A stretch of DNA of 64,000 nt. Source: a virus. Lineage: Duplodnaviria; Caudoviricetes. Positions 17,231-50,820 of the stretch are shown one piece after another. The DNA is taken from IMG/VR virus record IMGVR_UViG_3300031993_000033, positions 1-64,000 of that record; one strand, written 5' to 3'. The position numbers and the translations under genes were made by a program. The notes beneath the pieces are model-generated. The model ran no database searches. It saw nothing but the letters and a program-made list of their open reading frames with translations, and was not told the origin of the DNA. How positions within the stretch are numbered: the first letter of the stretch is position 1; each line of letters begins with the position of its first letter.

Positions 17231-19081
17231 TCAGTTATATCTTTTTGCGGGGCGAGCCATGAAGAAGTTTGCTTCTTCCTCAACTTTCGGTTTGTTTATT
17301 ACACTTCCTCTACGTAATTCGTATAATCTATGAGCAAGCATAATCAAAACGTAGAAGCGGTCATCGTGCATACGATTTTCTTTCTCTTTAGATAACGCAT
17401 AATTGACAGAAGTCCTTTCTGCATTTTCAGTCTTATGAATAGAAGTTACCTCATTTTTCATAAGGTCTATTTGAACTAATGCCATCTTCTCATCATCTGA
17501 AAGTTCATGATTTACCCATATCTCGTTACCTTCCGCGTCAACGCCATCAATAACTTTTATGAAGTCTTGCCCCGAATACTCATAAGGGAATTTAATAACA
17601 CCTAAATCCATAAGCTCTATCATTTCCTCAACCATTTGAGTACGATATTTTTTAGGACTAATAAGCCTTAATTTATCACAGGCATTTGGATAACGACTAA
17701 CATAAGTTTGATACAATTCATTCGTCTTATCAATAAATCCTCTATGAACCTTGCCGTATTTATCCGAATACTCATTCAAAAGTCCATCTCCGTAAGCACT
17801 GACACCACCACCGCCAGCACCCGCATCAATTTCGAGCAGATTCAGATACTCATAATCAGGATTTTGCCCATTATAAATATTAATTAACGACCTAAGTTCT
17901 TCCAATTGCCTATTAGAATCAAGTTTGTATTTTTTCTTAGTGGCGTTATCAATCATGTTTACACAATTTATAATGTCTCCACACCAACCCAATTCTTTGT
18001 CTTGGTAAACATTCATAACGCCTATAATGCTATTGTCTGCCGTTCTCGCAGGATCGAAGGCTATTACGATGTTACTATTTGGTTTCCAATGCAACGTAGG
18101 CAAATAAAAGTTCTCATTTCTACGAATAGTGTCCCATTTAACAATTTGACTACTTCCACCGTCCATTGTGGGCTGATTGAAATATTCTCTTAATGCCTTA
18201 TCTTTATTACTCTTGAGAGCTGCATCAACTTTGTCTCTTGTGAGTAGGGGAGTATATGGCTCACCATTCATATAGGTTTGAATTGCTACATCACAAATCA
18301 TGTCACAAACAAAATAATCTCTATCTCCTGCAATCATGCGCTTTGCAAAATTCTTATAGTGCTTATAGAATGTTTTATCCATTTGGTCTTGCGATGAAGC
18401 ATAAACCAACTGAGTAGGCACTTTCCTATGCTCCGCTTCAGGATTATAGTTTTCTTCCGTAGATGTACTGAAATCGCTATTTTGCGTTGCAAACGCTTCG
18501 CAGACAGCTATTAATTCATCAGAGCAAAATGCGCTCTCATCAAAAAATACAAGCGTAGCCCTTCGAGAACGAGCTGAATCTGGACGACTGTTCAACGTAT
18601 TAATTGAACTACCATTATAAAATTCTACTTCATATCCCGCTGGATTATGACTGAATCCAGTTTTGTTAGTTGCTGTCTTTTTCGTTTCTTTTTCGAGTAT
18701 ATCCTTTAAAGAACGAATAGAAGCCGCCGTCTTACCCATGCGAGTGATTATTTCTTCAAGCTTCGAGAATGTTTCCTTTGCCTGATCTCCGACGGATGAA
18801 ACTATATAAATAGCTTGATTTTCATAAAGTACCGCCTTCAAAATCATAAGAATTGCGCCCAAAAAAGATTTGCCAAAGTTTCGACTACAACACCAAACAC
18901 TATGTGATGCGTTCCATGTGCTTTGCAATATCCATTTTTGAGCATCAATTAATCTAATACCAAGCTAAAGTAGGTCTTCACACGCAATGCATGGATTCCT
19001 CCGATAATAAGCAATAGACTCGGCGTCTAATTCACATATTTTTTTCTTAATCGGAGTGAGAATAATTTTATTCCTTTTCAA
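17231..19081 (-). CDS. terL: Terminase large subunit, interrupted by in-frame TAG at 18965-18967 (predicted recoding)
   Basis: TTG 19081 after AAAGGAGGTGAT; Q-motif LIDAQ, Walker A SRNFGKS, Walker B LVFFDE, nuclease FDPA and HDDR; the 38-codon upstream segment is in frame with ORF 17231..18928. Confidence 0.9.
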
Positions 19082-29356: not shown

Positions 29357-29375
29357 GTCCTTTCTTTTGCTCTCT

Positions 29376-29543
29376 TTAGTGCTTAGAAGCCGTTTCAAAA
29401 TCCTTCTTGAATTTTTCAGTCACTTCAAACACAAATATTGTTTTTGACCTATCTTCTTTACAAGGTTTAATATCAAGGATTGGATTACCCATTCTTAACA
29501 ATCTCCTTGCAACATATGGTGTAAATACAGATTTCGTTTCCAT
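29376..29543 (-). CDS. Small conserved phage protein (DUF5659-like), 55 aa, not in ORF track
   Basis: METKSVFTPYVARRLLRMGNPILDIKP...TIFVFE; GGAG RBS. Confidence 0.6.
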   Translation of the reverse strand: METKSVFTPYVARRLLRMGNPILDIKPCKEDRSKTIFVFEVTEKFKKDFETASKH

Positions 29544-29931: not shown

Positions 29932-32679
29932 TTACGCTACATCAAAGGTGTTAACATTTTTATTTCTCGATTTCTTCATACAATTTTTAGCCGCAATTTT
30001 CCTATATTCAGCCTGACACTTCTTGCATCTACATTGCATACTGGTAGCTTTCTTAAATGGTTCACCGCAATCAATACAACGTCCATCTCTTATCCTTTCG
30101 ATAGTGTCCATATTGTTACGAATATTCTCGTAGACAATATCCCCAAAAAGCTCCCAAAACATTTTCTTTTTAGATGTATAATCAGGGCTTTTTCTATCAA
30201 AGATGCTCTTAATAATCATATCCACAATTTCAGATTTGGTGCAGTCGGCAGAGTCGAATATCTTTTTGCGACAATCAGCAATTACCAACTCATAATTAAT
30301 TACATGACCTTCTTCACTCTTTTTGAACTTCATGCTTCTGACTTGCCTGTATGCTGTAATAACTTCATCTAATATCTTAATATTTTTATCACACATCAAC
30401 ATCTCGTAGTTATACATCTTCTTACTATCATAGATGCAATAATTCATTTTTAATCTTGGATATACCTTACGAATAAGATTTACAGGTGAATTGTTTATAG
30501 GTTCTACTTGATGCAACTCCTTGCCTTTAGCAAACTCGAAAAATCGTGGCACTTTTGACTTAGTAAACTTAGGAATGATATTTGCTGGTGTATCACCATA
30601 TGTTGTATCGGTCGCCCCTTGTCTATCAATCATAAACAAAGTTTTGGCGGCGTCGATGCTGAAATTTGATTCACAGCACAACCAACGCACCGCAGCCATA
30701 GCTTCAGGAGATAGTTCCCAATTGCCATTTTCAATAGGAGTGTTCCATATTTTTGTAATGGCATTGCTGTAAATTCCTATCTTGCCGTAACTAAAAGCAG
30801 CTCTCATTCCTTGATATAAACTATCTGGCGTAATAAGCGAAGCGTCGCCTTTCTTCATCTCATAATACATGGGCTTTATATCCTTACAGGCTTCTATTGA
30901 TGCTTTTACCAAAATATCATCATCGGTAACAAATACATGATCTCCATCCCAGTCCTCGGCTCTTATGCGTTGATTAAAGTCATTAAGACTGACATAACAA
31001 GCATTAGTCGTAAACCATTCAGACTGAATGTTGTTTGTGCATATACAATGTTCTCTGTATAAATGAGGACTTCTTAGCACATCTAATTTCTTACCATCAT
31101 CAAATAAATCGCAGCTTACTTCATTAGCCTTTAATAAGCCATCAGGATTCTCTATGCCTAAAAGCCACTTTTGACAAAAGGCATATAAATCAGGAACGGT
31201 AAAAGTGTATTGAGAGTGAAGTTTGAATTTTGCAGACCACAAATCTTTCTCAAGACTATTCTTCAAATCTGAAATCTGTGTTCTTGTATATGAATCTTCT
31301 AACATCTCAGGATAAAGATAGAGACATTTCTGATACCATGAACGACATCTATCAACATCGTTTGCTCCTAAGATTTTTAAGAGTTTTTCTTTATCGGCAT
31401 AATGAGTAACGCTATCATCTTTGCTTCTTCCAAGAGAAAGTATTTCTTCATGATTAACCTTGCCGAGTTCTCTGATATCATCTTCAGTAAGATTTCTCAA
31501 TGTCTGTATCATTTGGTACGATGTAGTTGCCGAGTATTCAGCTTCTTCATCATCTACATTACCAATGCCAGCAACACAGTTATATTTCTTGAAGCGAGTC
31601 TTATAATCGTCCCAACTATCATATATCTTCCACATCTTGAACTGAGATTTGGTAAAAACTATATTTATATTATCTTTTATCAAATCCCATTTCTTGCCAT
31701 ATATATCAGTGACGATAGAAGAACAATCATGTTCCTCTATAAATTTCAAGTAATCAAACGGACAACAAAGCCCTTTAAAAAACGGCATACGAATTACAAA
31801 GTTTTCGGAACTTACCGATGGCAACACCATGCCACAACCATCATTCATTTCAAGAGCAAACGAGTTAGTCTTTCTCGTTATTTGATAAGTTTGATAGTCT
31901 ATATAGTCCGCCTCTCCAACAACATCTTTTTGTAAATCGTCAACAACGATAGCTCTGTCTATGTCAAAATCTGTAAAGGGCGTTGTTCCAGAATTGCAAA
32001 GTGACATATAACTGAGCACCTTGTTAATGTTGAAACCACCCTTGCGATTTATCTCGTCAAAAGACAGCCCCGCCATTAAAGTATTCCATCTATCTTCAGT
32101 CAAAGCATCTTCTCTTACGCAAACAATCTTATGCTGCCGTATCTGCCCCGCCGAAGCCGTAAAGAATTTGTACTTATAACCTTGATACATAAAACCGTTC
32201 TTTATCAATGAATACATGATGTCATAATAGCAAATGGTCACAATGCAAACCTCCGGATTAAACTGATCTACGCCAGCTTTTAAACCCAATGTTCTTGCTA
32301 AATTCCCATCTGGTACAGTAACTCGTTTAGTTAATCCAACCTCTCCATACTTATTGAGAACAGAATCTTCTCGCAAAGAACGTATTATGTCTTTGTTACT
32401 TTCAATCTCAACTCGTAGGTTATCTTTTAGCCCTTTAATTTTTTCTCTATAAGCTTTCTTAATCTCTACATTTTCTTCGTCCCATAAAGATATGTCCGCA
32501 GAATTTAACAGAGTAATTATTCCACTTTCATCTTCTTGATATTTAGGAGTCGGTCTATTTTTTAAGAACTTACTAAGCTGCTCCTCTGTTTCGCGAATAG
32601 AATCATTAATTTCTTTTTCTTTATCGGTATAGAAAGATTCTGTTCCTACGCCAAATACATAGAACAATCTGTTTTTCAA
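29932..32679 (-). CDS. yonO: Single-subunit two-barrel RNA polymerase, YonO family
   Basis: FTASAGQIR, NDGCG, RMPFFKG, RSPH, catalytic DWDGD, IDAAKT; C-terminal zinc ribbon. Confidence 0.85.
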   Translation of the reverse strand: MKNRLFYVFGVGTESFYTDKEKEINDSIRETEEQLSKFLKNRPTPKYQEDESGIITLLNSADISLWDEENVEIKKAYREKIKGLKDNLRVEIESNKDIIRSLREDSVLNKYGEVGLTKRVTVPDGNLARTLGLKAGVDQFNPEVCIVTICYYDIMYSLIKNGFMYQGYKYKFFTASAGQIRQHKIVCVREDALTEDRWNTLMAGLSFDEINRKGGFNINKVLSYMSLCNSGTTPFTDFDIDRAIVVDDLQKDVVGEADYIDYQTYQITRKTNSFALEMNDGCGMVLPSVSSENFVIRMPFFKGLCCPFDYLKFIEEHDCSSIVTDIYGKKWDLIKDNINIVFTKSQFKMWKIYDSWDDYKTRFKKYNCVAGIGNVDDEEAEYSATTSYQMIQTLRNLTEDDIRELGKVNHEEILSLGRSKDDSVTHYADKEKLLKILGANDVDRCRSWYQKCLYLYPEMLEDSYTRTQISDLKNSLEKDLWSAKFKLHSQYTFTVPDLYAFCQKWLLGIENPDGLLKANEVSCDLFDDGKKLDVLRSPHLYREHCICTNNIQSEWFTTNACYVSLNDFNQRIRAEDWDGDHVFVTDDDILVKASIEACKDIKPMYYEMKKGDASLITPDSLYQGMRAAFSYGKIGIYSNAITKIWNTPIENGNWELSPEAMAAVRWLCCESNFSIDAAKTLFMIDRQGATDTTYGDTPANIIPKFTKSKVPRFFEFAKGKELHQVEPINNSPVNLIRKVYPRLKMNYCIYDSKKMYNYEMLMCDKNIKILDEVITAYRQVRSMKFKKSEEGHVINYELVIADCRKKIFDSADCTKSEIVDMIIKSIFDRKSPDYTSKKKMFWELFGDIVYENIRNNMDTIERIRDGRCIDCGEPFKKATSMQCRCKKCQAEYRKIAAKNCMKKSRNKNVNTFDVA

Positions 32680-38878: not shown

Positions 38879-39154
38879 TAAATCCCTCACTTTTCTGTTA
38901 AACTTTAAAATTTTTGAGCATTTTTTAATTGACATTTTTACCGATATATCGTCATTTGCAAACATTATCGTAGCACCAAACACCACAGTTATTTAGTTTA
39001 CATATACTGAGGTACTTTGTGCTACACACATTTCTCATGAACGCCTATAATTAGCCAAAACACCACCTCATTTTTTATTTGTTTTTTTAGAAGTTATTTC
39101 TAATTTCTTTCTCTGCCAGTGCAGAACTATCCCCACTCTTTTCTTCCCAATCCC

Positions 39155-39183
39155 ATTATAACACTAATTTCTTACTTTGTCAA
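39155..39183 (-). promoter_or_regulatory. Sigma-A promoter for leftward operon
   Basis: TTGACA-17bp-TATAAT, TG extension. Confidence 0.8.
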
Positions 39184-39712
39184 GCCCCTAAAAGAAAAAA
39201 GTTGTCCCTACTGTAATAGTAGCCATGACTTCTTCGGTAGCCCATAATAAAAAAAATAATTCTTTTTCTCCTAAAGGTCGCCCCAACTCGTTCTGTAACG
39301 GCAAGAATCAGAGTTGCCACCACCAAAGAAAAAGTCCGCAAAACTCCCCATTCGTCCCAAAGCCCCATATTTCGCAGAGAAGTGGGGATTTTGGTTGGTT
39401 TTGGTCTAAAAATGCTGGGATTCGCATTATCTCTAAAAGGCTATTTACGGGGTTTTGTCCGAAATTGGTGACGATGAAAAGTGACAGTTTTTGTCGGAGG
39501 GTATGAAAATATTCATATGACTGTGATTGAACACCTTATCCCTATCGCTGCGCTGAATCCGGTATCCTAAATGTAAAATATCCCCACGGATTATACATCC
39601 AGTAAACGGCTATAAACAGCTAAAAAATCAAACAATTGAATTGTCCAAATGCAATTGTTTAAAATCTTATTTTATTAATATCTCTTTAATGGTTACAAGC
39701 TCCTAAAAAAAA

Positions 39713-39752
39713 TGAGAATCATTCTCATATTTGAATTTGAGAATCGTTCTCA
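39713..39752. promoter_or_regulatory. Two tandem Fur-family-like boxes
   Basis: TGAGAAT-C-ATTCTCA and TGAGAAT-C-GTTCTCA, 7-1-7 palindromes similar to TGATAATnATTATCA. Confidence 0.5.
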
Positions 39753-40347
39753 TTTTGTTCGCTATATGCACAAAAGTATACAAAGGTGAATTTTTGTATA
39801 CTATGTATTATAATTTTTAATAGTATTAACTATCATAGTCAATCCATTTTACACTAAACGCCAAAAAATATACTATTGTGCAATATGCACAACTTTCCAC
39901 AACTAAAGCGCGACTTTCAACAGCCTTGAAACGTCGATATATAGCCACAAAACAGTAAAATGCGCTGTAATGCCGTTTGTAACATATGGGTAATATAATA
40001 TCATTGCTTTTTGAAGAACGTCAAAAAAGAGTATTTTGGAGCGTCTGGGAGTGTGCGAGATCAGCGTATTTGATTAACGATTTTTACTTAGAGGCGGAGG
40101 ATGCAATTTGTAGTAAATAAGTTAATAATTAAAAATGATATGATATTATGAAAATAAATTTAACAAAATATCCGTACTGGCTGCGATAAAAAGTAAAATA
40201 TATAACAAACTGTTGGCTCCGATCTGGATGTATGTTAGAATTAACTAACAAATTGCTTCTGTATATATAATGTATTATAAAGGCAGCATATAATTAACAA
40301 ATAATATTTATTCACAAAACAAATACAAAACATTCATAAAATATTCA

Positions 40348-40376
40348 TTGACATTATTCTAATTATGTGGTATTAT
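40348..40376 (+). promoter_or_regulatory. Sigma-A early promoter
   Basis: TTGACA-17bp-TATTAT, TG extension. Confidence 0.75.
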
Positions 40377-40471
40377 ATAATCACAGAAACGAAAACAACA
40401 CAAAAAGCTAAACGATGAAGGTTTAGCAAATATCACAAAAAACTGAATATAAAGTTTGTACAAAATGACTA

Positions 40472-40500
40472 TTGACAAACATTCAGATATGTGATATACT
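40472..40500 (+). promoter_or_regulatory. Sigma-A early promoter
   Basis: TTGACA-17bp-TATACT, TG extension. Confidence 0.75.
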
Positions 40501-40824: not shown

Positions 40825-41499
40825 ATGATGTACACTAATATTTTAAAGTCTTTACAGGCTGAAAACACAAACCGCATAAACAACGCTATAAAGGCTATAA
40901 ATGATAATAATATAGCTTTACAGCGTTACGCAACACAGGCAAGATGGAGCGCATACTTCAATCAGAATTTAAGCCGTGAAAAGTGTGTGGAATACACCAC
41001 AAACCGCATAAAAAAGGAAGCTGAAAAGAGCTTAAAAGCTGATATAGCAAGCCTTGAAAAGTACGAAAACGCACCTACAATTGAAGCTATTCAGATTAAT
41101 ATTGATTGGAAGCGTTCAAGTGTATGGGGATATAATCCACACGTTACACTCCGCATATGGTATGAAGGTATATTTGACATTGAAGAATATACAGCAAAAG
41201 CAAGCGGCTGTAATTACGACAAAAGATCACACGCTGTAGCAAGCGCACTGAATCAGTGTGCAGCTATAAAGGCTTTACTTTGTAACATGAAGGAAAAAGA
41301 AATTGAAAACGGCACGGAAATAAAAAAGACTGTAAGCGGGCTTGACATAAATCCGCATTCTTCAGGCTATGGAGCTATACCCTTTGTTGATGGTTGCGGA
41401 ATGTCAGCAATTGAAAATTTACTGGACAAATGCGGCTTTAAACTTACAAAAGAGCACGGCACAAAAACGACTGATTATTATTGGTTTGACCGCAAATAA
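40825..41499 (+). CDS. Early hypothetical protein
   Basis: AAGGAGG RBS, 224 aa. Confidence 0.7.
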   Translation: MMYTNILKSLQAENTNRINNAIKAINDNNIALQRYATQARWSAYFNQNLSREKCVEYTTNRIKKEAEKSLKADIASLEKYENAPTIEAIQINIDWKRSSVWGYNPHVTLRIWYEGIFDIEEYTAKASGCNYDKRSHAVASALNQCAAIKALLCNMKEKEIENGTEIKKTVSGLDINPHSSGYGAIPFVDGCGMSAIENLLDKCGFKLTKEHGTKTTDYYWFDRK

Positions 41500-41507
41500 A
41501 ATTCAAA

Positions 41508-41577
41508 TTTCAATGCAGAGTGACGCGGGATTTTTCCCGCGGTAATGCAGCCGGAGGCGGTCACAAGCCCGCTGAAT
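41508..41577 (+). ncRNA. Twister self-cleaving ribozyme, P5-type permutation
   Basis: UGCAGAGUGA, P1 hairpin CGCGGGA/UCCCGCG, UAAUGCAGCC, P4 GCGG-UCACAAGC-CCGC, T1 UCAC/GUGA, P5 UUCA/UGAA; predicted cut U41543/A41544. Confidence 0.85.
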
Positions 41578-41606
41578 CTGTAAATATATCTTTTGGAGGT
41601 CATACT

Positions 41607-42005
41607 ATGAAAAAGTGTAAAATCAGATTGACGGACAACAGCAAAAAGTTAATTTCTATGCTGGAAATTGATGATGTAAAAGCTATGATTCAGGAATTGC
41701 AGAATCAGGAGCTTGAAACAGATATTTTCAATCTCATTCCCGTTGCTATGGGATGTATTAAAAATTCAACATGGAGCTATTATGACGTAACAATGGAAAT
41801 ATGTAGAAATGCAAGAGTACCATATAATTACTACACGGAAAATAGTGCATACTATGATGTATGGGTAAATTTCAAGGCATTCAATGATTTTGACGGTTTT
41901 TATGTTGTTGGTATTTGCTTATCGGATATTTACAGCATATCAGAGGACAACAAACAGGAAATAAGACAGCATATGTATGTAAGAGAATACACGGAAAATA
42001 AATGA
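41607..42005 (+). CDS. Early hypothetical protein
   Basis: ATG after GGAGG; the longer ORF-track start overlaps the ribozyme. Confidence 0.7.
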   Translation: MKKCKIRLTDNSKKLISMLEIDDVKAMIQELQNQELETDIFNLIPVAMGCIKNSTWSYYDVTMEICRNARVPYNYYTENSAYYDVWVNFKAFNDFDGFYVVGICLSDIYSISEDNKQEIRQHMYVREYTENK

Positions 42006-42022
42006 AATGGAGGTTTAAAGCT

Positions 42023-42265
42023 ATGGCAAGACAGAAAATTACTATGGAAAAGCAAGTGAGAAATACGGTTATATATAACGATATTCTCAAGGCTATAGGT
42101 GGAAAAGCTAATGATACAATATCCATATACATTGACAGGAAATTTTACGCACATTATTCACGCTATTTAGGGAATGATGTATTTGACGATATTGCAGCAC
42201 ATAGCAACAAATCAGTTGATTTGATTGACGATCAGACAGGGGAAATTTTACGGCATAAAGCATAA
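42023..42265 (+). CDS. Early hypothetical protein
   Basis: GGAGG RBS. Confidence 0.65.
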   Translation: MARQKITMEKQVRNTVIYNDILKAIGGKANDTISIYIDRKFYAHYSRYLGNDVFDDIAAHSNKSVDLIDDQTGEILRHKA

Positions 42266-42373
42266 TAAAATCAAAGTTTTAACATTTAGGCGGCTATTTG
42301 AATACGGAAATTTGAATAGCTGTCTATGTGCTAAAACACATAAATCTATTGGAAATTTAAAGGAGGCTATACT

Positions 42374-42718
42374 ATGAAATATCATAAGATACCAAAAATT
42401 GAAAAGTCGGTATGTACCGCGGAGCAGAAAATTGCATATAACTATGCATCCACATATGCGGATAGATACCGCGATACATGGAAAAAGACAGCGGATCAGT
42501 ATTGTGAATTTCAGAAGTCAGAATTTATACATGAAGCTGTTGAATGGTGTATGAAGCTGATGCGGAATAATGCGGAAATTCAGCGGAAATATGACATTGA
42601 CGCTATATTTTGCGCGCTTAATGCTGGAATGCGGAATTACTTTGAAGCTAAATATAGTATACTGTCAAGCTATGAAGAAATAGGAAAAATGTTTCCTGCT
42701 AACTATTTAAATGTATAA
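42374..42718 (+). CDS. Early hypothetical protein
   Basis: AAGGAGG RBS. Confidence 0.7.
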   Translation: MKYHKIPKIEKSVCTAEQKIAYNYASTYADRYRDTWKKTADQYCEFQKSEFIHEAVEWCMKLMRNNAEIQRKYDIDAIFCALNAGMRNYFEAKYSILSSYEEIGKMFPANYLNV

Positions 42719-42731
42719 AGGAGGTTTAATT

Positions 42732-43019
42732 ATGAATAGACGTGAAATGTTAAACTGGATTAAATCAGAAATTTGTCCTAAACTTGACTTGAGTCAAGAG
42801 CTTGACATAAAATGTATACTTGACGTTGTGGGAAAATTCCGCATAAATCAGCACTACAAAACAGATACACCAATGACCGCAGCCGTTAATGAATATGGTC
42901 ATTTGTTTATCAATGGTATTCACGCCGGACAGATCACAAATAAAATACCTTTTGGAAATTTTGACGAGGAAGGTTATTTCTACGAAGGAAAAATATTAGC
43001 AAGATCAGAAGTCGAATAA
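42732..43019 (+). CDS. Early hypothetical protein
   Basis: AAGGAGG RBS. Confidence 0.65.
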   Translation: MNRREMLNWIKSEICPKLDLSQELDIKCILDVVGKFRINQHYKTDTPMTAAVNEYGHLFINGIHAGQITNKIPFGNFDEEGYFYEGKILARSEVE

Positions 43020-43109
43020 ACCTATATACTATGGGCTTGACGGAAATTCAAGCCTATAAATATAAGCTTATTTACCACATAAAACACATATTCTAAAGGA
43101 GGAAAAATT

Positions 43110-43562
43110 ATGAAAACAATGTCAATCTTTTTGGCAATAGCTTTAACGTCAAGTCCTATGCCAGCGGAAAATTATTATTCCTCTACTTCTCCTGAAGTAG
43201 CAACTGAGATTATAGAGCTTGTTATTAATGGAGAATATAGGGAATATTTAGACTTTAATGGTGACGGAAATTTAAACATTGCCGACGTTGTAGGCGTAAG
43301 CAAGCGTTATTCTGATAACTGTAAATACGGCAATGAGATAACATTAACAAGTGATACAGTGTACGATATTGCAACGGAAAATTATAGCGATGAGCTTATT
43401 TACTGGGAGATTGACCGCGTAAACGGAAATTTAACAAGACAGTACGAGCTTGTAGCAAGTGAGATTATGACAGCGGAAATTTACATGGAATTTGAAAACT
43501 ATTCAGAATGTATTACTGTTGAAGTCAATCCCTTTACGGAGACAATAACAGTAATTGATTAA
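43110..43562 (+). CDS. Putative exported protein with dockerin-like Ca-binding repeat
   Basis: Signal-like N-terminus; DFNGDGNLNIADVV motif. Confidence 0.55.
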   Translation: MKTMSIFLAIALTSSPMPAENYYSSTSPEVATEIIELVINGEYREYLDFNGDGNLNIADVVGVSKRYSDNCKYGNEITLTSDTVYDIATENYSDELIYWEIDRVNGNLTRQYELVASEIMTAEIYMEFENYSECITVEVNPFTETITVID

Positions 43563-43574
43563 GGAGGCGTGATT

Positions 43575-43715
43575 ATGTATTGCACATTTAATGGAAAAAT
43601 CTGCTTAATGATGTGGGATATACAAGCGGAAAAATACGTTTATATTCCTGAGTCAGTGTGGTATAGCTTTACAGAAAAAGCAAGATCACGCTATACAGAA
43701 GAACGCACAAATTAA
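43575..43715 (+). CDS. Early hypothetical protein, 46 aa, not in ORF track
   Basis: AAGGAGG RBS. Confidence 0.55.
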   Translation: MYCTFNGKICLMMWDIQAEKYVYIPESVWYSFTEKARSRYTEERTN

Positions 43716-43740
43716 ATGATTATAATATATCGGAAAGTTG

Positions 43741-43769
43741 TTGACAAAGTAACAAATGTGTGGTATACT
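43741..43769 (+). promoter_or_regulatory. Sigma-A promoter
   Basis: TTGACA-17bp-TATACT, TG extension. Confidence 0.75.
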
Positions 43770-43851
43770 ATAATCACAGGGAAAATCCCTGAATAGTTAT
43801 ACCCTAACAAGTAAACAAATGAAAAGTGTATTTTAACAGGAGGTCACGATT

Positions 43852-44337
43852 ATGAAAAGAACGTTTAATTTTGGAAAAATAGCCGCTTATGGTACAAGAA
43901 AAATCAATGCTGTTGATATTACCATTGAATTAACGGAAAAAGATGGTAAAAAGGTATTTTCAGCAAGCGGAAATGTATGGAATGCAAGGCATACAGATAT
44001 TATTAGAGGCGGTCAGTGTTTAGATTATATAGCAACAACAGCAAAAGGGCATAATCCTACATTTAAAAAAATATATAGACTTTGGAAAAATTACCACTTA
44101 AATGATATGCACGCAGGTACAAGAGAACAGGAAAATGCACTTAATGAGGCTGTAAAAGCTGGAAAAATTCAGAGCCGATCAGCAAATAACTATACCGAGT
44201 GTTGTGAATATCTAAAATCAATTGGATTATATGAAGTTGAGTTTAACGGAAAAATGTATAAATATGGTCATGGTTGGCTGTATTGGGAAATTCCTACAGA
44301 GGATATAGCAGCCATTGAAGCGTTAATAAAAGAGTGA
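43852..44337 (+). CDS. Early hypothetical protein
   Basis: AGGAGG RBS; W..YHLNDM.AGT..Q and YKYGHGW motifs. Confidence 0.7.
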   Translation: MKRTFNFGKIAAYGTRKINAVDITIELTEKDGKKVFSASGNVWNARHTDIIRGGQCLDYIATTAKGHNPTFKKIYRLWKNYHLNDMHAGTREQENALNEAVKAGKIQSRSANNYTECCEYLKSIGLYEVEFNGKMYKYGHGWLYWEIPTEDIAAIEALIKE

Positions 44338-44433
44338 TTCTATCATACGGAAAAAGCTTGACGGGTAGCTTACAATACCCGTCACCATAGACAATAAACC
44401 ATAAACCAACGGAAAATTAAGGAGGTCAAAACT

Positions 44434-44721
44434 ATGAATGAACAGGCTATTATTGACAAGGTAAACAAGATCGTTTCGGAAATTCGCAAAGAATATACCG
44501 AGTACAAAGGACAGTATTATTTACTTACTCATGTTATCAATCTTGAATTTCTTATGGGCAAATACTTTGCACTCATGGAAATTTTACTGAATAACATCGG
44601 AGAAAATCCGCTGAATCCTTTTGACAATGCGTATTGCACAGAGTACGAAAAGAATAAGGCTTTTATTGAAGCCGTTACAACACATATTGACGGTATGTAT
44701 AAGAAGCTGAAGGAGGTTTAA
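44434..44721 (+). CDS. Early hypothetical protein
   Basis: AAGGAGG RBS. Confidence 0.65.
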   Translation: MNEQAIIDKVNKIVSEIRKEYTEYKGQYYLLTHVINLEFLMGKYFALMEILLNNIGENPLNPFDNAYCTEYEKNKAFIEAVTTHIDGMYKKLKEV

Positions 44722-44723
44722 TT

Positions 44724-45044
44724 ATGGCAAATCAGATATTTGCAACACTTGACAAGTCGGAAAAATGGCTGGATAAACAGCGTGAAATTGACGGATATTC
44801 AGTTGACGGATTTACAGTTATTCCTTGCTTTAGAGGAAAATCAGTTGAGATCACATTCTTTAGGTTTGTAAAGCCTTTAGGATATGAGAACAAATGCAGC
44901 TATGAGATACCGACGGAAATTCGATCACAGTGCTATATGAAAATCATTAGCAAGTTAAAGAGATGCAGTTTTGTTGACGGAAAAGTTATCATATCAATAA
45001 GCGGTCAGAAATACTGCATAGGAACGTACACAACGGAAATTTAA
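44724..45044 (+). CDS. Early hypothetical protein
   Basis: AAGGAGG RBS. Confidence 0.65.
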   Translation: MANQIFATLDKSEKWLDKQREIDGYSVDGFTVIPCFRGKSVEITFFRFVKPLGYENKCSYEIPTEIRSQCYMKIISKLKRCSFVDGKVIISISGQKYCIGTYTTEI

Positions 45045-45057
45045 GGAGGAAGGAAAA

Positions 45058-45312
45058 ATGAAATACTATGAAATTGAATTTGCTCATAGAGCAGAAATTG
45101 AGGATGAGAGCTTTATCGGTACACCCGATAGATATAGTATCTGTATCTTAGCGGAAAGAGAGCCTTCATATGAAGAAGCGGAAATTTTCTGCAAAGAGGA
45201 TATGAACAATTTAGGTTATGACATGGTAAGTGATGTGTTGGAAATTAGCAAGGAAGAAGCCTACAATTTCTTTGATATGGAAAATGCAGACAACTTTCCG
45301 ATATTCAAGTAA
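45058..45312 (+). CDS. Early acidic hypothetical protein
   Basis: AAGGAGG RBS; strongly Asp/Glu-rich. Confidence 0.65.
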   Translation: MKYYEIEFAHRAEIEDESFIGTPDRYSICILAEREPSYEEAEIFCKEDMNNLGYDMVSDVLEISKEEAYNFFDMENADNFPIFK

Positions 45313-45413
45313 ATAAAATGACTGTTTAAACGTGAGCCGAAGCGGTCAGAAATGACCGTTTCCACATACGCTTAAACGGAAAATCAAAACAGCCGAAAGG
45401 CAAGGAGGTCAAT

Positions 45414-45758
45414 ATGTTAGTATTCAATTTCAATCATACGGAAAAGCAGCTTGAATTAGCTTGCAATGAGTTTTCGGAAATTCAGCTTGTAGCGGACAAT
45501 GAAGTATGCAAGGGCTGGGATATGCGACTCGGACACAGTGAGTTGAATATCACAAAGTATGGAGACTTCTACCGTGTAGGTGACTGCTACAATGGAAAAA
45601 TCCTGAGATCATTCAAGTGTAGTTTTGACGGAAATATGATAACAATTTATTCCGCTAATGACAACGGCAGAGAGCTTAAAGCGGAAAAATATTTAAAGAA
45701 ATATGCACAGTGTGCAATGAGAGTATTTGCTCTTGTACAGTGTGGAAAAATTAATTGA
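45414..45758 (+). CDS. Early hypothetical protein
   Basis: AAGGAGG RBS. Confidence 0.65.
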   Translation: MLVFNFNHTEKQLELACNEFSEIQLVADNEVCKGWDMRLGHSELNITKYGDFYRVGDCYNGKILRSFKCSFDGNMITIYSANDNGRELKAEKYLKKYAQCAMRVFALVQCGKIN

Positions 45759-45770
45759 GGAGGTTTAATC

Positions 45771-45983
45771 ATGTACGAATGCAATATCACTATAAAGCAG
45801 CCAACAGGGAAAGTCTCACAGAATAGAATAATGTCAAGGTTTGAGACAACACCTGAAATGATAGCGAGATCGGAAATGTGCTGGTATAGCACAGGAACAA
45901 TAATTGAAGTCAATGGAAAAGCCTTTAGGAAAATTCATGTTGATGATGCCGTTAAAGGCTATGCAGAGTTAGAGGAGGTTTAA
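45771..45983 (+). CDS. Early hypothetical protein
   Basis: AGGAGG RBS. Confidence 0.65.
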   Translation: MYECNITIKQPTGKVSQNRIMSRFETTPEMIARSEMCWYSTGTIIEVNGKAFRKIHVDDAVKGYAELEEV

Positions 45984-45985
45984 TT

Positions 45986-46360
45986 ATGGGATATGAGAGC
46001 AGAATAATTGTAGCAAAAAGGACTGTGTGGGAAGGATCAGGTCTTGTATGGTTTGAGAAGCTATCGGAAATGTGGTTAAGCAAAGTCGGTTATAACTTCC
46101 CTGAAATCTTCACTACGGAAATTGAATCCAATATCTATGGTGACGGTTTCAAGGAAAATTCAGAAGAAGAATATGAGCTGACCGAGGACAGATACGGAGA
46201 CATCTGCAAGTACACAGACATACAGACGGTCATTGACTGGCTGGAAAATGCAGAAGCAAAAAAGCATTACAGAAGGTTTACTCCTGCTATTGCAATGCTA
46301 AAGGCATATGCAGCGGAGAAATGGGAAGGCGATATAGTGGTGATCCACTATGGATATTAA
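45986..46360 (+). CDS. Early hypothetical protein
   Basis: AGGAGG RBS; MGYES...HYGY. Confidence 0.65.
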   Translation: MGYESRIIVAKRTVWEGSGLVWFEKLSEMWLSKVGYNFPEIFTTEIESNIYGDGFKENSEEEYELTEDRYGDICKYTDIQTVIDWLENAEAKKHYRRFTPAIAMLKAYAAEKWEGDIVVIHYGY

Positions 46361-46366
46361 GGAGGT

Positions 46367-46558
46367 TTGATTATGAACTTAGACGAAGCTATCAAATTAG
46401 TATTAAAAGGTAAAGCTATTAGAGCTAAAGAATGGGAAGAAGGTATGTACTTTAAGATTCGATGGCGTATGTTTGAGACTGAGGGCAGCGTAAGAAGTAA
46501 ACTTTGGAAATGGAAGGATTCAGAGTTTGAAGAAGTGCTGTTTGATTATACCGAATAA
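46367..46558 (+). CDS. DUF2829/Tad2-like small protein
   Basis: MNLDEAIKLVLKGKAIRAKEW resembles the DUF2829 N-terminus. Confidence 0.4.
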   Translation: MIMNLDEAIKLVLKGKAIRAKEWEEGMYFKIRWRMFETEGSVRSKLWKWKDSEFEEVLFDYTE

Positions 46559-46593
46559 AATAACACTTTCATTTAGCAGAGAGGAGTTTTAAT

Positions 46594-46908
46594 ATGCCTT
46601 ACAAATCGGAAAAACAAAAGCTTCCGCCTGAATTAGATCGCAGACGTAAGTTGAATGATGCACAGAAAGACGAGATAAAACATAAATACAGCACTGGACT
46701 TTACAGTCTTAACAGACTTGCTAAAGAGTATAATGTAAGTAAGAAAACAGTATTGCTTATTGTCAATCCTGAAAGCAAACGGAAAAATGATGAACGTATT
46801 AAAGAACATTGGCGTGATTATGTGCCTACAAAAGAAGAACATAATGCCATTATGAGAGAACACAGGGCATACAAACATAGAGTTTTAAAGGAGAAAAATT
46901 ATGTATAA
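46594..46908 (+). CDS. HTH DNA-binding protein
   Basis: KLNDAQKDEI...SLNRLAKEYNVSKKTV helix-turn-helix. Confidence 0.7.
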   Translation: MPYKSEKQKLPPELDRRRKLNDAQKDEIKHKYSTGLYSLNRLAKEYNVSKKTVLLIVNPESKRKNDERIKEHWRDYVPTKEEHNAIMREHRAYKHRVLKEKNYV

Positions 46909-47056
46909 AGCAACAATAACTTATATGACAGGCAGAATGAGAGGTATGACGGTATATCGTCTAACTTCTGATAAATTTGAACGTGGAATGATGTATAACG
47001 ATTCGCTTACAAACAATCGGTTTTATGTTGATTACGTTACAAAGATAGGAGAATGA
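46901..47056 (+). CDS. Hypothetical protein, 51 aa, not in ORF track
   Basis: AAGGAG RBS; fills the gap, coupled at both ends. Confidence 0.55.
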   Translation: MYKATITYMTGRMRGMTVYRLTSDKFERGMMYNDSLTNNRFYVDYVTKIGE

Positions 47057-47838
47057 TTATTATGACAAAGGAAAAATATCTTACACTTATAAACAAGGCT
47101 ATTGAAAATCTGAAAGATAATGATGACAACTACGGACAGACACCGATAGACTTCATGAGGAAAAACGGAGTTAAGTCTACAGATAATATGACAATATTCC
47201 TTGACAGTGTAGGAGCTTACCTTGAGGAAATCAGGTGCGGACTTCTCGCAGACATGGAAGCAGAAGAAGCAAAGAAGAACGGAAAATCAAGCGTGTTATC
47301 TACTATCAAGAAGTTATGCAACGACAATTACAAGACACAACAAAGTGTAAGACCACAACTTGCATATGCGAATTATGACGAAGCGGAAAAGAAGTATATT
47401 ACGGTTAGCGGTTATTGGCTCATTATGTCGGAAAATCCTGCTGGTATGGTGGAGATGCCTGAGAACGTCAAGAAGGATATAAAAGAACCTTTAAAGTATA
47501 GACAGTGGATTCCTAACAAGTATGAGATGCACAAAGTTGAACTGCCGACACGGGCAAAGATCAGCACTTACTTGAAGGCTCGTAAAGCCACAAGGAATAA
47601 GCACGACAAAACATGGGACAGGCTTGTATTTGAGGACTTTGCCGTTAAGGGAGAATGGCTCGAAGCAGCTATGAAGATAACAGGCTCATCGGAAATTTAT
47701 GTCAAGGACAGTATTCACGCTCTGCTTATGGAAGGCAATGGCTACACTATGGTGCTTATGCCCATAAAGAATAAAGAGACAGACAAGAATACTGGCGAGG
47801 AAAAGCATATGCCGATTACAAATTTTGAGGTGGTATAA
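47053..47838 (+). CDS. Hypothetical protein with sliding-clamp-like C-terminal region
   Basis: TVSGYWL...EWLEAAM...VLMPIK resembles beta-clamp domain motifs. Confidence 0.45.
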   Translation: MIIMTKEKYLTLINKAIENLKDNDDNYGQTPIDFMRKNGVKSTDNMTIFLDSVGAYLEEIRCGLLADMEAEEAKKNGKSSVLSTIKKLCNDNYKTQQSVRPQLAYANYDEAEKKYITVSGYWLIMSENPAGMVEMPENVKKDIKEPLKYRQWIPNKYEMHKVELPTRAKISTYLKARKATRNKHDKTWDRLVFEDFAVKGEWLEAAMKITGSSEIYVKDSIHALLMEGNGYTMVLMPIKNKETDKNTGEEKHMPITNFEVV

Positions 47839-47839
47839 T

Positions 47840-48121
47840 ATGAACACTCTTACACTTGCAATTGCACTATCGGAAAAATTATACAAGTCACATATTAAAG
47901 TGCTTAAATACTTTTTGGAAAATCCAATCTTTGAAGGCTCGTACAGAGAGCTTTCAAGTATGCTATACGGCAAACCTAATCTGCAAAGCAACGCTCGGAA
48001 ATTCGTCAATGAGCTTGCGGATATGGGAGTGCTTATGGTGGAAATTAATAATGACTGCCCATCAAGAGATCAGAACAGGACGTATATACAGTTAAATCCG
48101 AATTGGTTACAGGCTTTATGA
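47840..48121 (+). CDS. Winged-helix DNA-binding protein, putative
   Basis: SYRELSSML..SNARKFVNELADMGVL plus wing. Confidence 0.6.
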   Translation: MNTLTLAIALSEKLYKSHIKVLKYFLENPIFEGSYRELSSMLYGKPNLQSNARKFVNELADMGVLMVEINNDCPSRDQNRTYIQLNPNWLQAL

Positions 48122-48127
48122 GGAGGG

Positions 48128-48349
48128 ATGATTATGTCTACACCGGAAACTATAGAAGAAATGAGGCGACGCAGAGAGTATGCTGAAAAAGCAAATGAAA
48201 ATCTGCGCAGGTGTAAGTGTTGTAATGTTTGTCGCAATGCAGAAACTGGCTTTAGTGACGAGGCAATTCCATATTATCAGGTGATATGCAAGATTACAGG
48301 GGAAAATCGCAAGGGACGTTCAGGATTTATGTGTCCGCATTGGAAGTGA
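48128..48349 (+). CDS. Cys-rich hypothetical protein
   Basis: AGGAGG RBS. Confidence 0.6.
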   Translation: MIMSTPETIEEMRRRREYAEKANENLRRCKCCNVCRNAETGFSDEAIPYYQVICKITGENRKGRSGFMCPHWK

Positions 48350-48359
48350 GGAGAAGAAA

Positions 48360-48542
48360 ATGAGAGTTATTATTGATGGAAAAACATATCGCTTAAAAGA
48401 TGGCGTTAAGATACGCTTACAGGGTATTGCATTACTGACACTTGGTATGTTATGCCATAAAGTAAATGCAGACGGAGCAGCGGTATTTATGTGGCTTTTA
48501 GGTGTGACAATGCTGTTTGGAAAAATTGATAGTAAACGCTAA
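48360..48542 (+). CDS. Small membrane protein
   Basis: Two hydrophobic segments, GAGGAG RBS. Confidence 0.55.
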   Translation: MRVIIDGKTYRLKDGVKIRLQGIALLTLGMLCHKVNADGAAVFMWLLGVTMLFGKIDSKR

Positions 48543-48552
48543 CAATTTATTC

Positions 48553-48581
48553 TTGACAATTGGAAATTTGCGTGACATAAT
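48553..48581 (+). promoter_or_regulatory. Sigma-A promoter for recombinase-ParB pair
   Basis: TTGACA-17bp-CATAAT, TG extension. Confidence 0.65.
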
Positions 48582-48596
48582 ATTAGCATAAGGAGG

Positions 48597-49601
48597 TTGA
48601 TGACCATGTTGGGAAATTTAAAAGAAACTTGTAGAGTAATTGACATCTCACAGAGACAACAGTCGGAAAATTCTTTTGACTTTGATTTTGACAGCCTTAT
48701 TCCAGACGTAGAACAACTCACTCCCGAAGAAGAACAGGCGATAGCCGAAGCCGAGTCAAAACTCAAAGAACGTCAGGGCTTTGACTGTATGCCGATTGGA
48801 ATATTGAATGAGCTTCTGAGATATTTTCTTGACAGGCGTGACTTTCGATCTGTATTCTGGATTGTCTTACAGGCAAATACTGGACTGAGATATTCCGATG
48901 TTATCAAATATCGGCGCATTGATTTGTTGAATGAGCATAATAAATTCAGAGAGTCCATTCTTGAACAAGAACGGAAAACTGGTAAGCAGAGAGTCAACTT
49001 TATAAATGATGCTATCAAAATAGCTACACTAATGCTCATATGGGAAAATCCCAGTATAAAGCCTTTAGACTTGATGATTAGCTCTGAATACAATGATAAG
49101 GCTCACAACAAAGGCTATGAAAAAGAAACTTATATCAACGCCAATGGCGAAGAACGTTGTTTGAGAGTGAACGGAAAATACGTTTATAAGCTCGATGAAA
49201 ACGGAAACAAAATTCCGAAGGCTCTTGGTCGCAGTCGCAGTTGTACTATAATGCGCGATGCTATGGTAGAAGGACTTGGTATATGCCTTAAAAATGATGG
49301 TCGCACTAAGAACAATGACGGAGCTTATTTGAAGCTGGCAAGTCATTCCATTAGAAAAGCATACTCCGCTGGTGTTGTAGAGCAGTTTGAAAAGATGTTT
49401 GACAGCAATGAGGCTTACGCACACGCAGCGGCAATGGAACAGTTGCAGTACGATCTTAACCATTCAAGCAGATCTATGACTTATCATTATATAGGCGATT
49501 ATGCCGAGACAAAACGCAAAACAAACATGAATATGAATCTTGGTTTGGAAATTTTGAAGCCATATTTTGAGGCGGAACGAAAAAGATATTTAGAGAGGTG
49601 A
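48597..49601 (+). CDS. Tyrosine recombinase (catalytic-domain type)
   Basis: NTGLRYSD, ERKTGK, SHSIRK, LNHSS..MTYHY. Confidence 0.88.
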   Translation: MMTMLGNLKETCRVIDISQRQQSENSFDFDFDSLIPDVEQLTPEEEQAIAEAESKLKERQGFDCMPIGILNELLRYFLDRRDFRSVFWIVLQANTGLRYSDVIKYRRIDLLNEHNKFRESILEQERKTGKQRVNFINDAIKIATLMLIWENPSIKPLDLMISSEYNDKAHNKGYEKETYINANGEERCLRVNGKYVYKLDENGNKIPKALGRSRSCTIMRDAMVEGLGICLKNDGRTKNNDGAYLKLASHSIRKAYSAGVVEQFEKMFDSNEAYAHAAAMEQLQYDLNHSSRSMTYHYIGDYAETKRKTNMNMNLGLEILKPYFEAERKRYLER

Positions 49602-49605
49602 GAAT

Positions 49606-50115
49606 ATGGGAACTACATCATATAAAAAGGCTCATATGAGCGAAGCGATAACAATTCCGGTATCGGAAATTCAGCTTACAGAAGCGGTGCATATTGCCGG
49701 AAATCCACACTACACCTGTGTTGGAAAATCCAGCGAGGACTGTTGCGTGATTGTACGCAGAAAGCGCGGCGGCTATGCGCTTGTGAGTGGCTGGGCTGAC
49801 TATCGGGAGTGTATTATGCAAGGCTATGGTGCTGTAAAGGCTATCGTGATGAATACGAAACGTGGAAATTTCATGAGGCAGTATGGCGACACATATCTGC
49901 CCCTATCGGAAATTTATGTGCCGGAGCATTTTGCGAAGTCTACTCCTCGTGATTGGAAAATCCAAAGAGTAAAACACAGACTCGGAGATAAGAAGAAACT
50001 GGATAAGCCGATAACTATTAATCAGGAACGCTATATCGTAGACGGTTACACACGGTATCTTGTTGCAAGGGAAATCGGTATGCGGTATGTGCCTGTAAGG
50101 CGGATAAATGATTAA
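49606..50115 (+). CDS. ParB/Srx-like domain protein
   Basis: KPITI..YIVDGYTRYLVA..G...VPV; degenerate second copy YALVSGWADY N-terminally. Confidence 0.7.
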   Translation: MGTTSYKKAHMSEAITIPVSEIQLTEAVHIAGNPHYTCVGKSSEDCCVIVRRKRGGYALVSGWADYRECIMQGYGAVKAIVMNTKRGNFMRQYGDTYLPLSEIYVPEHFAKSTPRDWKIQRVKHRLGDKKKLDKPITINQERYIVDGYTRYLVAREIGMRYVPVRRIND

Positions 50116-50140
50116 AAGATAAAAATATATCGGAAAAGTA

Positions 50141-50169
50141 TTGACAATTGCAATAGGAAGCAGTATAAT
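50141..50169 (+). promoter_or_regulatory. Sigma-A promoter for tRNA cluster
   Basis: TTGACA-17bp-TATAAT. Confidence 0.8.
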
Positions 50170-50211
50170 AGATAACAGAGGGGAACGGAAAATTCCCTCT
50201 GGAAGAAATAT

Positions 50212-50286
50212 TGGGGATTCGCCAAGTGGTGAAGGCACAGGACTTTGACTCCTGCATCGTGGTTTCGAGTACCACATCCCCAACCA
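50212..50286 (+). tRNA. tRNA-Gln(TTG)
   Basis: Cloverleaf, CAGGA-CUUUGAC-UCCUG anticodon arm, encoded CCA. Confidence 0.9.
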
Positions 50287-50351
50287 ACGGTTTCATTTCA
50301 TTTGTATGTCCTTTCAAGCCCTGTGGCGAGGCTCTAAACCGCCACAAATAT

Positions 50352-50451
50352 GGGAGCAAACCCGATTGATAAGCAGGCGCAATGCTGCTTTTGTTCCACA
50401 CTTCGCTTTTAATCATCGTAAGGGTGGTAGCCAGTCCACCCTCTCCCACCA
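50352..50451 (+). ncRNA. tRNA-like RNA with atypical interior
   Basis: GGGAG/CUCCC+ACCA, T-like arm GGGUGG/CCACCC, internal hairpin AAGCAG/CUGCUU. Confidence 0.4.
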
Positions 50452-50514
50452 AAATCTACGCTATACCTTGTGTATAGTTGACCTCCTAACGCCCGTCATC
50501 GTGGCGGGCAATAT

Positions 50515-50600
50515 GGACTTGTGGCGAAATTGGTAAACGCACTTGGTTCAAACCCAAGCGGTCTTAGACCTTGCAGATTCGAGTTCTGTCAAGTCCACCA
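50515..50600 (+). tRNA. tRNA-Leu(CAA)
   Basis: Cloverleaf with long variable arm, CUUGG-UUCAAAC-CCAAG, encoded CCA. Confidence 0.9.
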
Positions 50601-50602
50601 TA

Positions 50603-50688
50603 GGCAAGGGAGATAAAGTAGGTAAGTATCTATGGGTTTAAGCGTAGCACCTATGGAGATCGGTTCAAATCCGGTATCAACCTTGCCG
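50603..50688 (+). ncRNA. Aberrant tRNA-like RNA
   Basis: Acceptor GGCAAGG/CCUUGCC, D-arm, canonical GGUUCAAAUCC T-arm, 11-nt anticodon loop, 5-nt insert before 3' acceptor strand. Confidence 0.55.
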
Positions 50689-50695
50689 TTATAAT

Positions 50696-50788
50696 CAAGA
50701 TATTGTGTTTTAAAGGCTAAAAATGCGGATAAAGCACAATATCTTGTGTTTTACGGTCTGAAAATGTGTGTAAGATACAAGATATTGT
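50696..50788. repeat. Three copies of CAAGATATTGT (two direct, one inverted)
   Basis: 50696, 50736 (reverse), 50778. Confidence 0.7.
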
Positions 50789-50820
50789 ACGATAGAACTA
50801 ATATTCTATGAGGTGATGAT

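Follow-up and report, generated by a model that had tools for sequence, protein, structure and literature searches.

The closest relatives of the element described here are short words read in one orientation, or confined to one part of a chromosome. Chi (RecBCD/AddAB) and KOPS/SRS (FtsK/SpoIIIE) are short one-strand words met by a moving machine; their orientation is what informs it, and the wrong orientation is selected against. In phage lambda the translocating terminase recognises cosQ, a short polar site near the end of the genome unit. The first-step-transfer region of T5 and the terminal-repeat takeover module of SPO1 contain many small early genes together with repeated DNA words, comprise ~8–16% of the genome and lie beside a chromosome end. 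The T4 RegB targets (GGAG) are short purine words of one temporal class of phage genes, while the EcoP15I (Type III restriction) bias of T7 places a non-palindromic word in a single orientation over long stretches of the phage. The subject of this work is a field of about 100 co-oriented copies of the word GGAAA, written through the early genes of a phage in IMG/VR virus record IMGVR_UViG_3300031993_000033. The window comprises the 64,000 nt at positions 1–64,000 of this complete 104,704-bp record, and the whole genome is labelled G000. Phage genomes are usually seen as a set of genes with a handful of compact sites (pac/cos, ori, promoters). The field forms a second layer of information that runs through ~22 unrelated genes and is policed on one strand of a 105-kb chromosome.

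Each of these nearest concepts matches the field in one property and differs in the rest. Chi and KOPS extend over whole replichores and are enriched in the host, whereas the GGAAA word occupies 9–20 kb of phage DNA, is excluded from the same strand elsewhere and is unremarkable in the candidate host. A cos phage has one cosQ of 7 bp, located beside cosN, in contrast to ~100 dispersed genic copies in a phage that probably packages by the headful. The T5 and SPO1 modules are likewise early-gene blocks, next to a chromosome end that in G000 would lie close by. Their repeated words, however, form compact non-coding arrays within long terminal repeats, whereas the GGAAA word is overlaid on coding sequence. 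Moreover, contig depths give no sign of a duplicated 9-kb repeat in G000: in the run that is probably its source, the depth, averaged per contig over bulk metagenome DNA, is 14.3 for both the field contig and the adjacent contig. RegB sites lie mainly in ribosome-binding sites and act in RNA, whereas the strand rule of the field extends to the strand that is not message. The T7 bias is a single orientation genome-wide that serves as an escape. In G000 both orientations are present, and the field and late blocks would stand head to head on a linear chromosome and be cuttable. Escape from type III restriction was rejected for G000, where both orientations are common (129 versus 118 genome-wide) and would face each other. 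A literature search found no description of a dense strand-polar word over phage early genes with exclusion from the same strand elsewhere, and the pattern suggests a unidirectional signal in the DNA, of a type as yet undescribed in phages. What is new is the exclusion from one strand, seen again in a second phage, the connection with a gap that is a candidate for bearing pac, and the negative tests of a CRISPR handle and of Chi.

Between 41,314 and 50,192 the + strand contains 103 copies of GGAAA (CGGAAA 52, TGGAAA 28, AGGAAA 14 and GGGAAA 9), while the reverse complements TTTCC and TTTCCG occur four times and once, respectively. The expectation from base composition is 21.6 for GGAAA and 3.2 for CGGAAA. 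The initial annotation had reported about 52 CGGAAA against about one TTTCCG with about three expected, and its count of 52 is reproduced exactly. It had also stated that the word nearly vanishes after 50.2 kb, and this drop is confirmed. The last field copy is at 50187, in a hairpin directly flanked by a consensus promoter upstream and two tRNA genes downstream. Over the whole genome the + strand has 129 GGAAA, 103 in the field and 26 in the other 96 kb, so the distribution is not uniform; for CGGAAA the whole-genome count is 56, divided between 52 in the field and four elsewhere. The core word is GGAAA and not CGGAAA. The informative unit comprises 9 nt, Y-GGAAA-W-W-Y, and is the same in three phages; field copies have Y at position –1 (C 50%, T 27%), W at +1 and +2 and Y at +3.

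41292..50191, + strand: GGAAA field of 104 copies with consensus YGGAAAWWY, covering ~22 small early open reading frames (ORFs) plus spacers, densest at 42–46 kb.

The enrichment outlives randomization of the coding sequence. On shuffling synonymous codons within the field genes, 91 GGAAA are observed where 41.9 ± 4.7 are expected (89–91 versus ~41 over the shuffle results, z ~11–12), and 44 CGGAAA where 9.8 ± 2.7 are expected. Shuffling the order of codons lowers the expectation to 28.9 ± 4.8 for GGAAA and 4.2 ± 2.0 for CGGAAA. In the field genes none of the 1024 5-mers is enriched as strongly as GGAAA (z 11). Every other 5-mer made of two G and three A (nine in all) is present in 8–27 copies in the field, so that GGAAA is 4–13 times commoner, and one-letter neighbours such as AGAAA, GAAAG and CGAAA are depleted in the field genes. 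The word is found in all three frames (xxG-GAA-Axx 52, GGA-AAx 27 and xGG-AAA 12), with 13 further copies between genes. Because the enrichment survives the shuffles, the copies occupy three frames and intergenic DNA, and the same word recurs in relatives whose genes are unrelated, selection on the field is supported as acting at the level of nucleic acid and not of protein, as first proposed. The field also constrains synonymous recoding of the early genes.

The density is ~5–12 copies per kb on one physical strand. Copies are separated by 87 bp on average and almost never by <30 bp; three gaps are <20 bp, compared with 20.3 ± 3.6 expected from random placement. No periodicity or helical phasing was found among the GGAAA positions in the field.

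G000 is, by its gene content, an SPbeta-like temperate phage of the bovine gut or rumen. It is placed among the SPbeta-like phages because it encodes a YonO-type RNA polymerase, and the sequencing runs that contain its sequence are labelled bovine gut or gut metagenome. No RNA run was listed for this stretch, and one run with a metatranscriptomic label is probably DNA. The layout resembles that of SPbeta. A leftward block with terminase, portal and structural genes runs from 88.8 kb through the start of the record to 39 kb, and is separated by a non-coding divergent gap at 39.1–40.3 kb from a rightward block. The latter begins with the small ORFan genes of the field and continues with a Sak annealing protein, a PD-(D/E)XK exonuclease and a primase-helicase. 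DNA polymerase and anaerobic ribonucleotide reductase are also encoded in this block, downstream of the field.

17231..18928, – strand: large terminase, 84% identical to that of the related phage contig C34, with no match in the relative G001.

29932..32679, – strand: YonO-type single-chain RNA polymerase of 915 residues, 36% identical to YonO of Bacillus phage SPbeta over 97% of its length.

39100..40330, no strand: divergent non-coding gap with a perfect leftward promoter (39183–39155) and paired palindromes TGAGAATCATTCTCA (39706–39759).

Outside the field the + strand is depleted of the word. GGAAA counts on this strand in late, field and middle DNA are 5, 103 and 20, where nine words of the same composition give 19–61, 8–27 and 56–117. 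The corresponding counts on the – strand (85, 4 and 24) are ordinary. In the middle genes, which are co-oriented with the field, the coding strand has 17 GGAAA versus 63.3 by codon shuffle (z –7.6), making it the most depleted of the 1024 5-mers. Selection is thus strong enough that GGAAA tops the 5-mers for enrichment in one part of the genome and for depletion in another. The late genes are transcribed from the opposite strand, and here it is TTTCC in the coding sequence (i.e. GGAAA on the + strand) that is depleted, with 4 versus 22.6 by codon shuffle (z about –5); the words more depleted than this in late genes are all parts of palindromic restriction-type sites. Sense-strand GGAAA in the same genes is 68 versus 90.6 expected. 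In the leftward block at 29.9–39.15 kb, which has a consensus sigma-A-like promoter at 39,183, there are 16 sense GGAAA (other words 15–36) and two on the + strand, though these are small counts.

The full exclusion test was applied to three genomes (G000, C34 and G001), two of which show the exclusion clearly. C34 has a YonO with only 37% identity to that of G000. Its middle genes contain 24 GGAAA versus 73.8 expected (depletion rank 1 of 1024); in its late genes coding TTTCC is 8 versus 23.5 expected, and sense GGAAA 89 versus 89.4. In G001 late, field and middle DNA fall in the same order but more weakly, with a weak field and no clear exclusion. Genes of the candidate host show neither effect (GGAAA 345 versus 293 expected, TTTCC 117 versus 125). 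It therefore seems to be the DNA strand, whichever way it is transcribed, that the exclusion obeys, and even single stray + strand copies outside the field appear to be costly. The pattern favours a DNA signal that is read in one physical direction. Since a protein bound to duplex DNA cannot tell the two orientations apart, and a reader of RNA would be indifferent to the template strand of the late genes, the reader should be something that tracks along the chromosome one way. This could be the motor that packages the DNA, the same DNA passing in reverse into the cell, or a replisome or helicase engaged in rolling-circle replication.

The syntenic region of related phages carries the same field in at least eleven contigs, whose early ORFs are mostly unrelated. 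It lies on the coding strand of the early block, just past the divergent gap, in G001, G041 (95% identical to G001), C34, C74, G045 and the six metagenome contigs L274–L279, in which there are 6–17 GGAAA copies per kb. Only three field proteins are recognisably shared between G000 and G001, and two between G000 and C34 plus one beyond the end of the field at 51,198; with so few in common, the word must be maintained in unrelated genes. The field begins 1.3–6 kb from the gap and thins with distance in G000, C34, C74, G001 and L277. Between the near-identical G001 and G041, 58 of 62 aligned GGAAA copies are kept versus 82% for all 5-mers. At 75–88% identity 61% of GGAAA sites are kept versus 45% for all 5-mers, and other purine-rich words range from 30 to 78%. 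It seems that density, and not the position of individual sites, is under selection.

The field is absent from SPbeta, from Bacillus proviruses and from the other YonO phages examined, and megablast with the field gave no match among GenBank phages. An excess of GCTGG in the early region of a YonO clade of 45% G+C was considered as an analogous field and rejected; it largely reflects amino-acid use, much of it in a membrane protein rich in Ala, Gly and Leu, and GCTGG is not excluded elsewhere. A metagenome-assembled genome (MAG) labelled Eubacteriales SGB_5139, which includes one contig with a 97% identical YonO together with the related phage contigs C34 and C74, is the candidate host, assigned by MAG binning only. 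A rumen Eubacteriales MAG (G043) contains among its binned contigs (C34, C74, C33, C10 and that of locus L024) three or more distinct phages of the group, all with the GGAAA field, which fits a shared host and a reader linked to the host or the clade.

The field and its edges contain the following elements.

40348..40500, + strand: two strong sigma-A-like promoters (at 40,348 and 40,472), TTGACA-17-TATTAT and TTGACA-17-TATACT, both with TG, at the start of the rightward early unit.

41514..41572, + strand: twister-P5 self-cleaving ribozyme (Rfam RF02684, 64.1 bits versus a gathering score of 37.6).

43110–43562, + strand: secreted early protein with a dockerin-like calcium-binding repeat (LDFNGDGxLxIAD), conserved.

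43711..43793, + strand: internal promoter (11/12 matches) with upstream box ATATATCGGAAA..TTGACA (repeat families D6 and D7), followed by a short 5′ hairpin with GGAAA.

48597..49601, + strand: YopR/MrpR-like tyrosine-recombinase-fold protein, syntenic with SPbeta YopP/YopR.

50111..50200, + strand: perfect TTGACA-17-TATAAT promoter with the same upstream box ATATATCGGAAA, followed by a hairpin with a CGGAAAA loop; right edge of the field.

50212..50597, + strand: two tRNA genes, directly after the field.

The first ~0.9 kb after the early promoters, comprising the first two early genes, has no GGAAA until 41,292. The twister-P5 ribozyme, located between the second early gene and the first field gene, lies at the left edge of the field, and segments 80–90% identical to the ribozyme region are present in C34 and C74. 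The long early transcript is probably cut at this point, leaving a 5′-OH on the field RNA. At the promoters at 43,741 and 50,141 the common upstream box ends in CGGAAA directly before the –35 hexamer. Just past the tRNA genes, at 50686–50790, two 41-bp direct repeats with 19–27-nt inverted repeats look like an operator or origin. In the gap the stretch 39870–40005 is 81% identical to G001/G041 and 39207–39707 is 77% identical to L277, while the flanking DNA is otherwise dissimilar.

Of 21 scanned proteins from the field and its surroundings, 10 of them encoded by field genes, most had no match in the library or libraries tried. The matches among field proteins were a helix-turn-helix (HTH) protein, a ParB-like domain and the tyrosine-recombinase-fold protein. 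The latter and the dockerin-like protein are the only two field genes common to G000, C34, C74 and G001 (42–47% identity), and the dockerin-like repeat suggests a cellulosome-bearing host. The initial annotation had named the HTH protein at 46594, a winged HTH protein at 47840 and the ParB-like protein at 49606 as possible readers, but a phage reader encoded inside the field is not borne out by the relatives; the HTH protein is common to C74 only, and the other two have no match in C34, C74 or G001. A UvrD-like helicase and its partner at 36–39 kb were rejected as readers on the same ground, with no match in these three phages.

The properties to be accounted for are the enrichment, the polarity, the selection at the nucleotide level, the recurrence in relatives, the exclusion from the same strand and the minimum spacing. 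The reading that we tentatively place first is that the field is a directional cis-acting DNA signal, for which the best-fitting reader is the packaging motor (terminase) or the entry machinery. YGGAAAWWY would be kept dense on one strand of the early module beside a pac-type gap, and selected against elsewhere on that strand. The reader would travel the full length of the chromosome one way only and react to individual copies. If it is the terminase, the early module could be a distributed zone of slowing or cutting by which the end of the genome unit is marked, and copies that strayed elsewhere could trigger such events too early. The close alternative is the reverse passage of the same DNA into the next host. 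SPbeta-like phages begin packaging at a point that has been mapped to the yonP–yonR gap; they package concatemers by the headful mechanism, proceeding towards the late genes. The divergent gap of G000 is a candidate pac, ori or operator region, the pac role being suggested because the gap is syntenic with this opening point. By the same synteny the field would be the last part of the genome unit to be packaged, and would lie within the first 10–20 kb to enter the next cell. The early suggestion of a polar code on first-injected DNA thus stands as regards polarity and confinement to the early block, while the place of this DNA in the order of injection depends on the comparison with SPbeta.

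Packaging or entry is ranked first because it explains the position of the field beside the gap, the rise in density towards the gap and the selection against stray copies, and because it is the only candidate that makes the field the end of the journey. For a terminase that recognises a short polar site while it translocates, lambda cosQ provides a precedent. G000 and C34, both with strong exclusion, have terminases that are 84% identical, and the terminase of G001 is different. The more specific proposal that this is a guide-word system of the phage's own, in which a strand-read 9-nt word sets the end of the genome unit or the entry of the first DNA and is forbidden elsewhere, is possible but more speculative. 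A reader in the packaging or entry machinery would make this a sequence-guided variant of what is otherwise sequence-independent headful packaging or DNA entry, and if this is true the chromosome ends and polarity of uncultured phages could be predicted from sequence alone.

Several observations weigh against packaging or entry. We infer the termini, the direction of packaging, the reader and the effect of a copy, and the position of pac and the packaging polarity come from synteny with distant Bacillus phages that lack the field. With an SPbeta-like polarity, from the gap into the late genes, a headful cut would fall beyond the field. Relatives with terminases of 67–77% identity have no field, while one with 91% identity has it; the terminase family alone is therefore no predictor, and the comparison is uninformative rather than contrary. 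G000 and C34 also share primase-helicase (67%), exonuclease and annealing-protein (Sak) genes that G001 lacks, so that the correlation with gene content does not single out the terminase. The 30-bp minimum spacing is not obviously explained by an effect on a motor. Lastly, the edges of the field coincide with features of transcription (ribozyme, promoters, hairpin and tRNA genes), which is simpler if the word is read in RNA.

This last point is the strength of the next explanation, that GGAAA in early transcripts marks them for a host or phage RNA-binding protein, an endoribonuclease (compare T4 RegB and GGAG) or an antitermination factor, and that the middle genes avoid it to be spared this treatment. 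We regard such a tag as unlikely, although several features fit it. The word is co-oriented with transcription, the field is bounded by the twister ribozyme on the left and by a promoter, hairpin and tRNA genes on the right, and two promoter-proximal hairpins carry GGAAA. In the co-transcribed middle genes GGAAA is depleted more than any other 5-mer, and a 30-nt minimum spacing would suit a footprint on RNA. It does not explain why the + strand of the late region is purged of the word, since this is template and not message, while the late and leftward-block messages keep ordinary GGAAA on the sense strand. An mRNA tag, one of the options raised in the initial annotation, is disfavoured for this reason. 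Nor does it account for the GGAAA-free first ~0.9 kb of the early transcript, and the predicted RNA accessibility of GGAAA (0.62) equals that of control words (0.62). The protein scan, which covered ~10 of the 22 field genes and some genes on either side, turned up no RNA-binding or nuclease family suited to GGAAA, and most of these proteins matched nothing. A reader acting on RNA would be a new kind of temporal-class tag.

A signal for replication or recombination on single-stranded DNA is less likely again. It could be a priming site for the primase-helicase (template 5′-TTTCC-R, primer GGAAA) or a Chi-like stop for a helicase-nuclease that enters at the exposed end, and the reader would be a fork or helicase running one way in rolling-circle replication. 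Such enzymes read short one-strand words and respond to single copies, and a pyrimidine-rich complement followed by a purine resembles the primase sites of T7, T4 and DnaG. The 67% identical primase-helicase, the exonuclease and Sak are shared by the two phages with clear exclusion and missing from G001. However, a priming or Chi site should do no harm elsewhere, which leaves the exclusion unexplained, and copies are densest on the side of the field away from the palindromic region at 50.7 kb. If the polarity is that of SPbeta, AddAB coming in at the first-injected end would be reading the opposite strand. The leading/lagging ratio of GGAAA in the candidate host, taken as G-rich over C-rich strand, is 2.08, within the range of control words (1.57–3.3), and there is no over-representation. 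The word was rejected as a host Chi on similar grounds: GGAAA occurs 681 and 682 times on the two strands of 400 kb of candidate-host DNA (416–798 for words of the same composition), and CGGAAAWT 202/240 times in the MAG compared with 215/212 for a control. The Chi/KOPS-like signal suggested earlier thus loses its footing in the host, where the word is neither over-represented nor unusually skewed. A KOPS/SRS arrangement was also rejected, as the word is on one side only, with no mirror-image field on the – strand rightward of 50.2 kb.

An array of duplex sites through which a phage protein (such as the YopR/MrpR-like repressor or an injected protector) would coat the early module or silence it is improbable. 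The YopR-like gene is the sole regulator-like field gene in all four phages compared and is found towards the far end of the field in each of them. A protein footprint is compatible with the minimum spacing, and at two promoters the word is directly upstream of the –35 box. A duplex binder would nevertheless accept either orientation, whereas only one is enriched or purged, and no helical periodicity was found. In SPbeta, MrpR binds a 15-bp element (SPBRE) at about ten promoters. The field does not conform to such a system, having information over 9 nt in ~100 copies that are mostly inside genes.

Far less probable is a decoy for type III-A CRISPR immunity, in which the word would mimic the 5′ handle of the guide RNA, ACGGAAAC. 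ACGGAAA is present in 25 copies in the field, but half of the field copies have no C before GG, and C follows GGAAA in only two of 104 copies (the consensus being W), so that the full handle is avoided. Neither Cas10/Csm1 nor an array ending in GGAAAC was found in the candidate-host MAG, which is incomplete and of uncertain host status, and a decoy leaves the strand rule outside the field unexplained. Finally, a by-product of composition, of codon or amino-acid use or of paralogous genes is barely credible, since, although the field is purine-rich and 52 of the 91 genic copies are in the G-GAA-A frame, the enrichment outlives both kinds of shuffle, is 4–13 fold over words of the same composition, extends to three frames and intergenic DNA and recurs in non-homologous genes of relatives, properties that the amino-acid-driven GCTGG excess of another clade does not have.

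Some further features of G000 were observed. A tyrosine integrase gene (22663–23863, – strand) overlaps or abuts a tRNA gene (23793–23863), and this junction may be the attachment site of the temperate phage. Three paralogous genes resembling HNH-AP2 homing endonucleases are located at 28610–29398, 32676–33641 and 80349–81383 of G000, two of which flank yonO. Between 69616 and 75978 there are 11 co-oriented poly-G tracts (G6–G9), nine of them within 72.8–74.4 kb in a part with no long ORF. At 67874–68345 a 15-bp tandem repeat (AACAGCGGTRAYYRC) of ~32 copies lies inside an ORF of 378 residues and encodes a pentapeptide repeat. A PAPS-reductase/DndC-like gene at 66493–67485, 64% identical in G001, may belong to a DNA-modification module. 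GATC, GGCC, CTAG, TTCGAA, CATG and GGATG are strongly avoided in the tested gene sets of G000, C34 and G001, and this avoidance suggests pressure from several host restriction systems.

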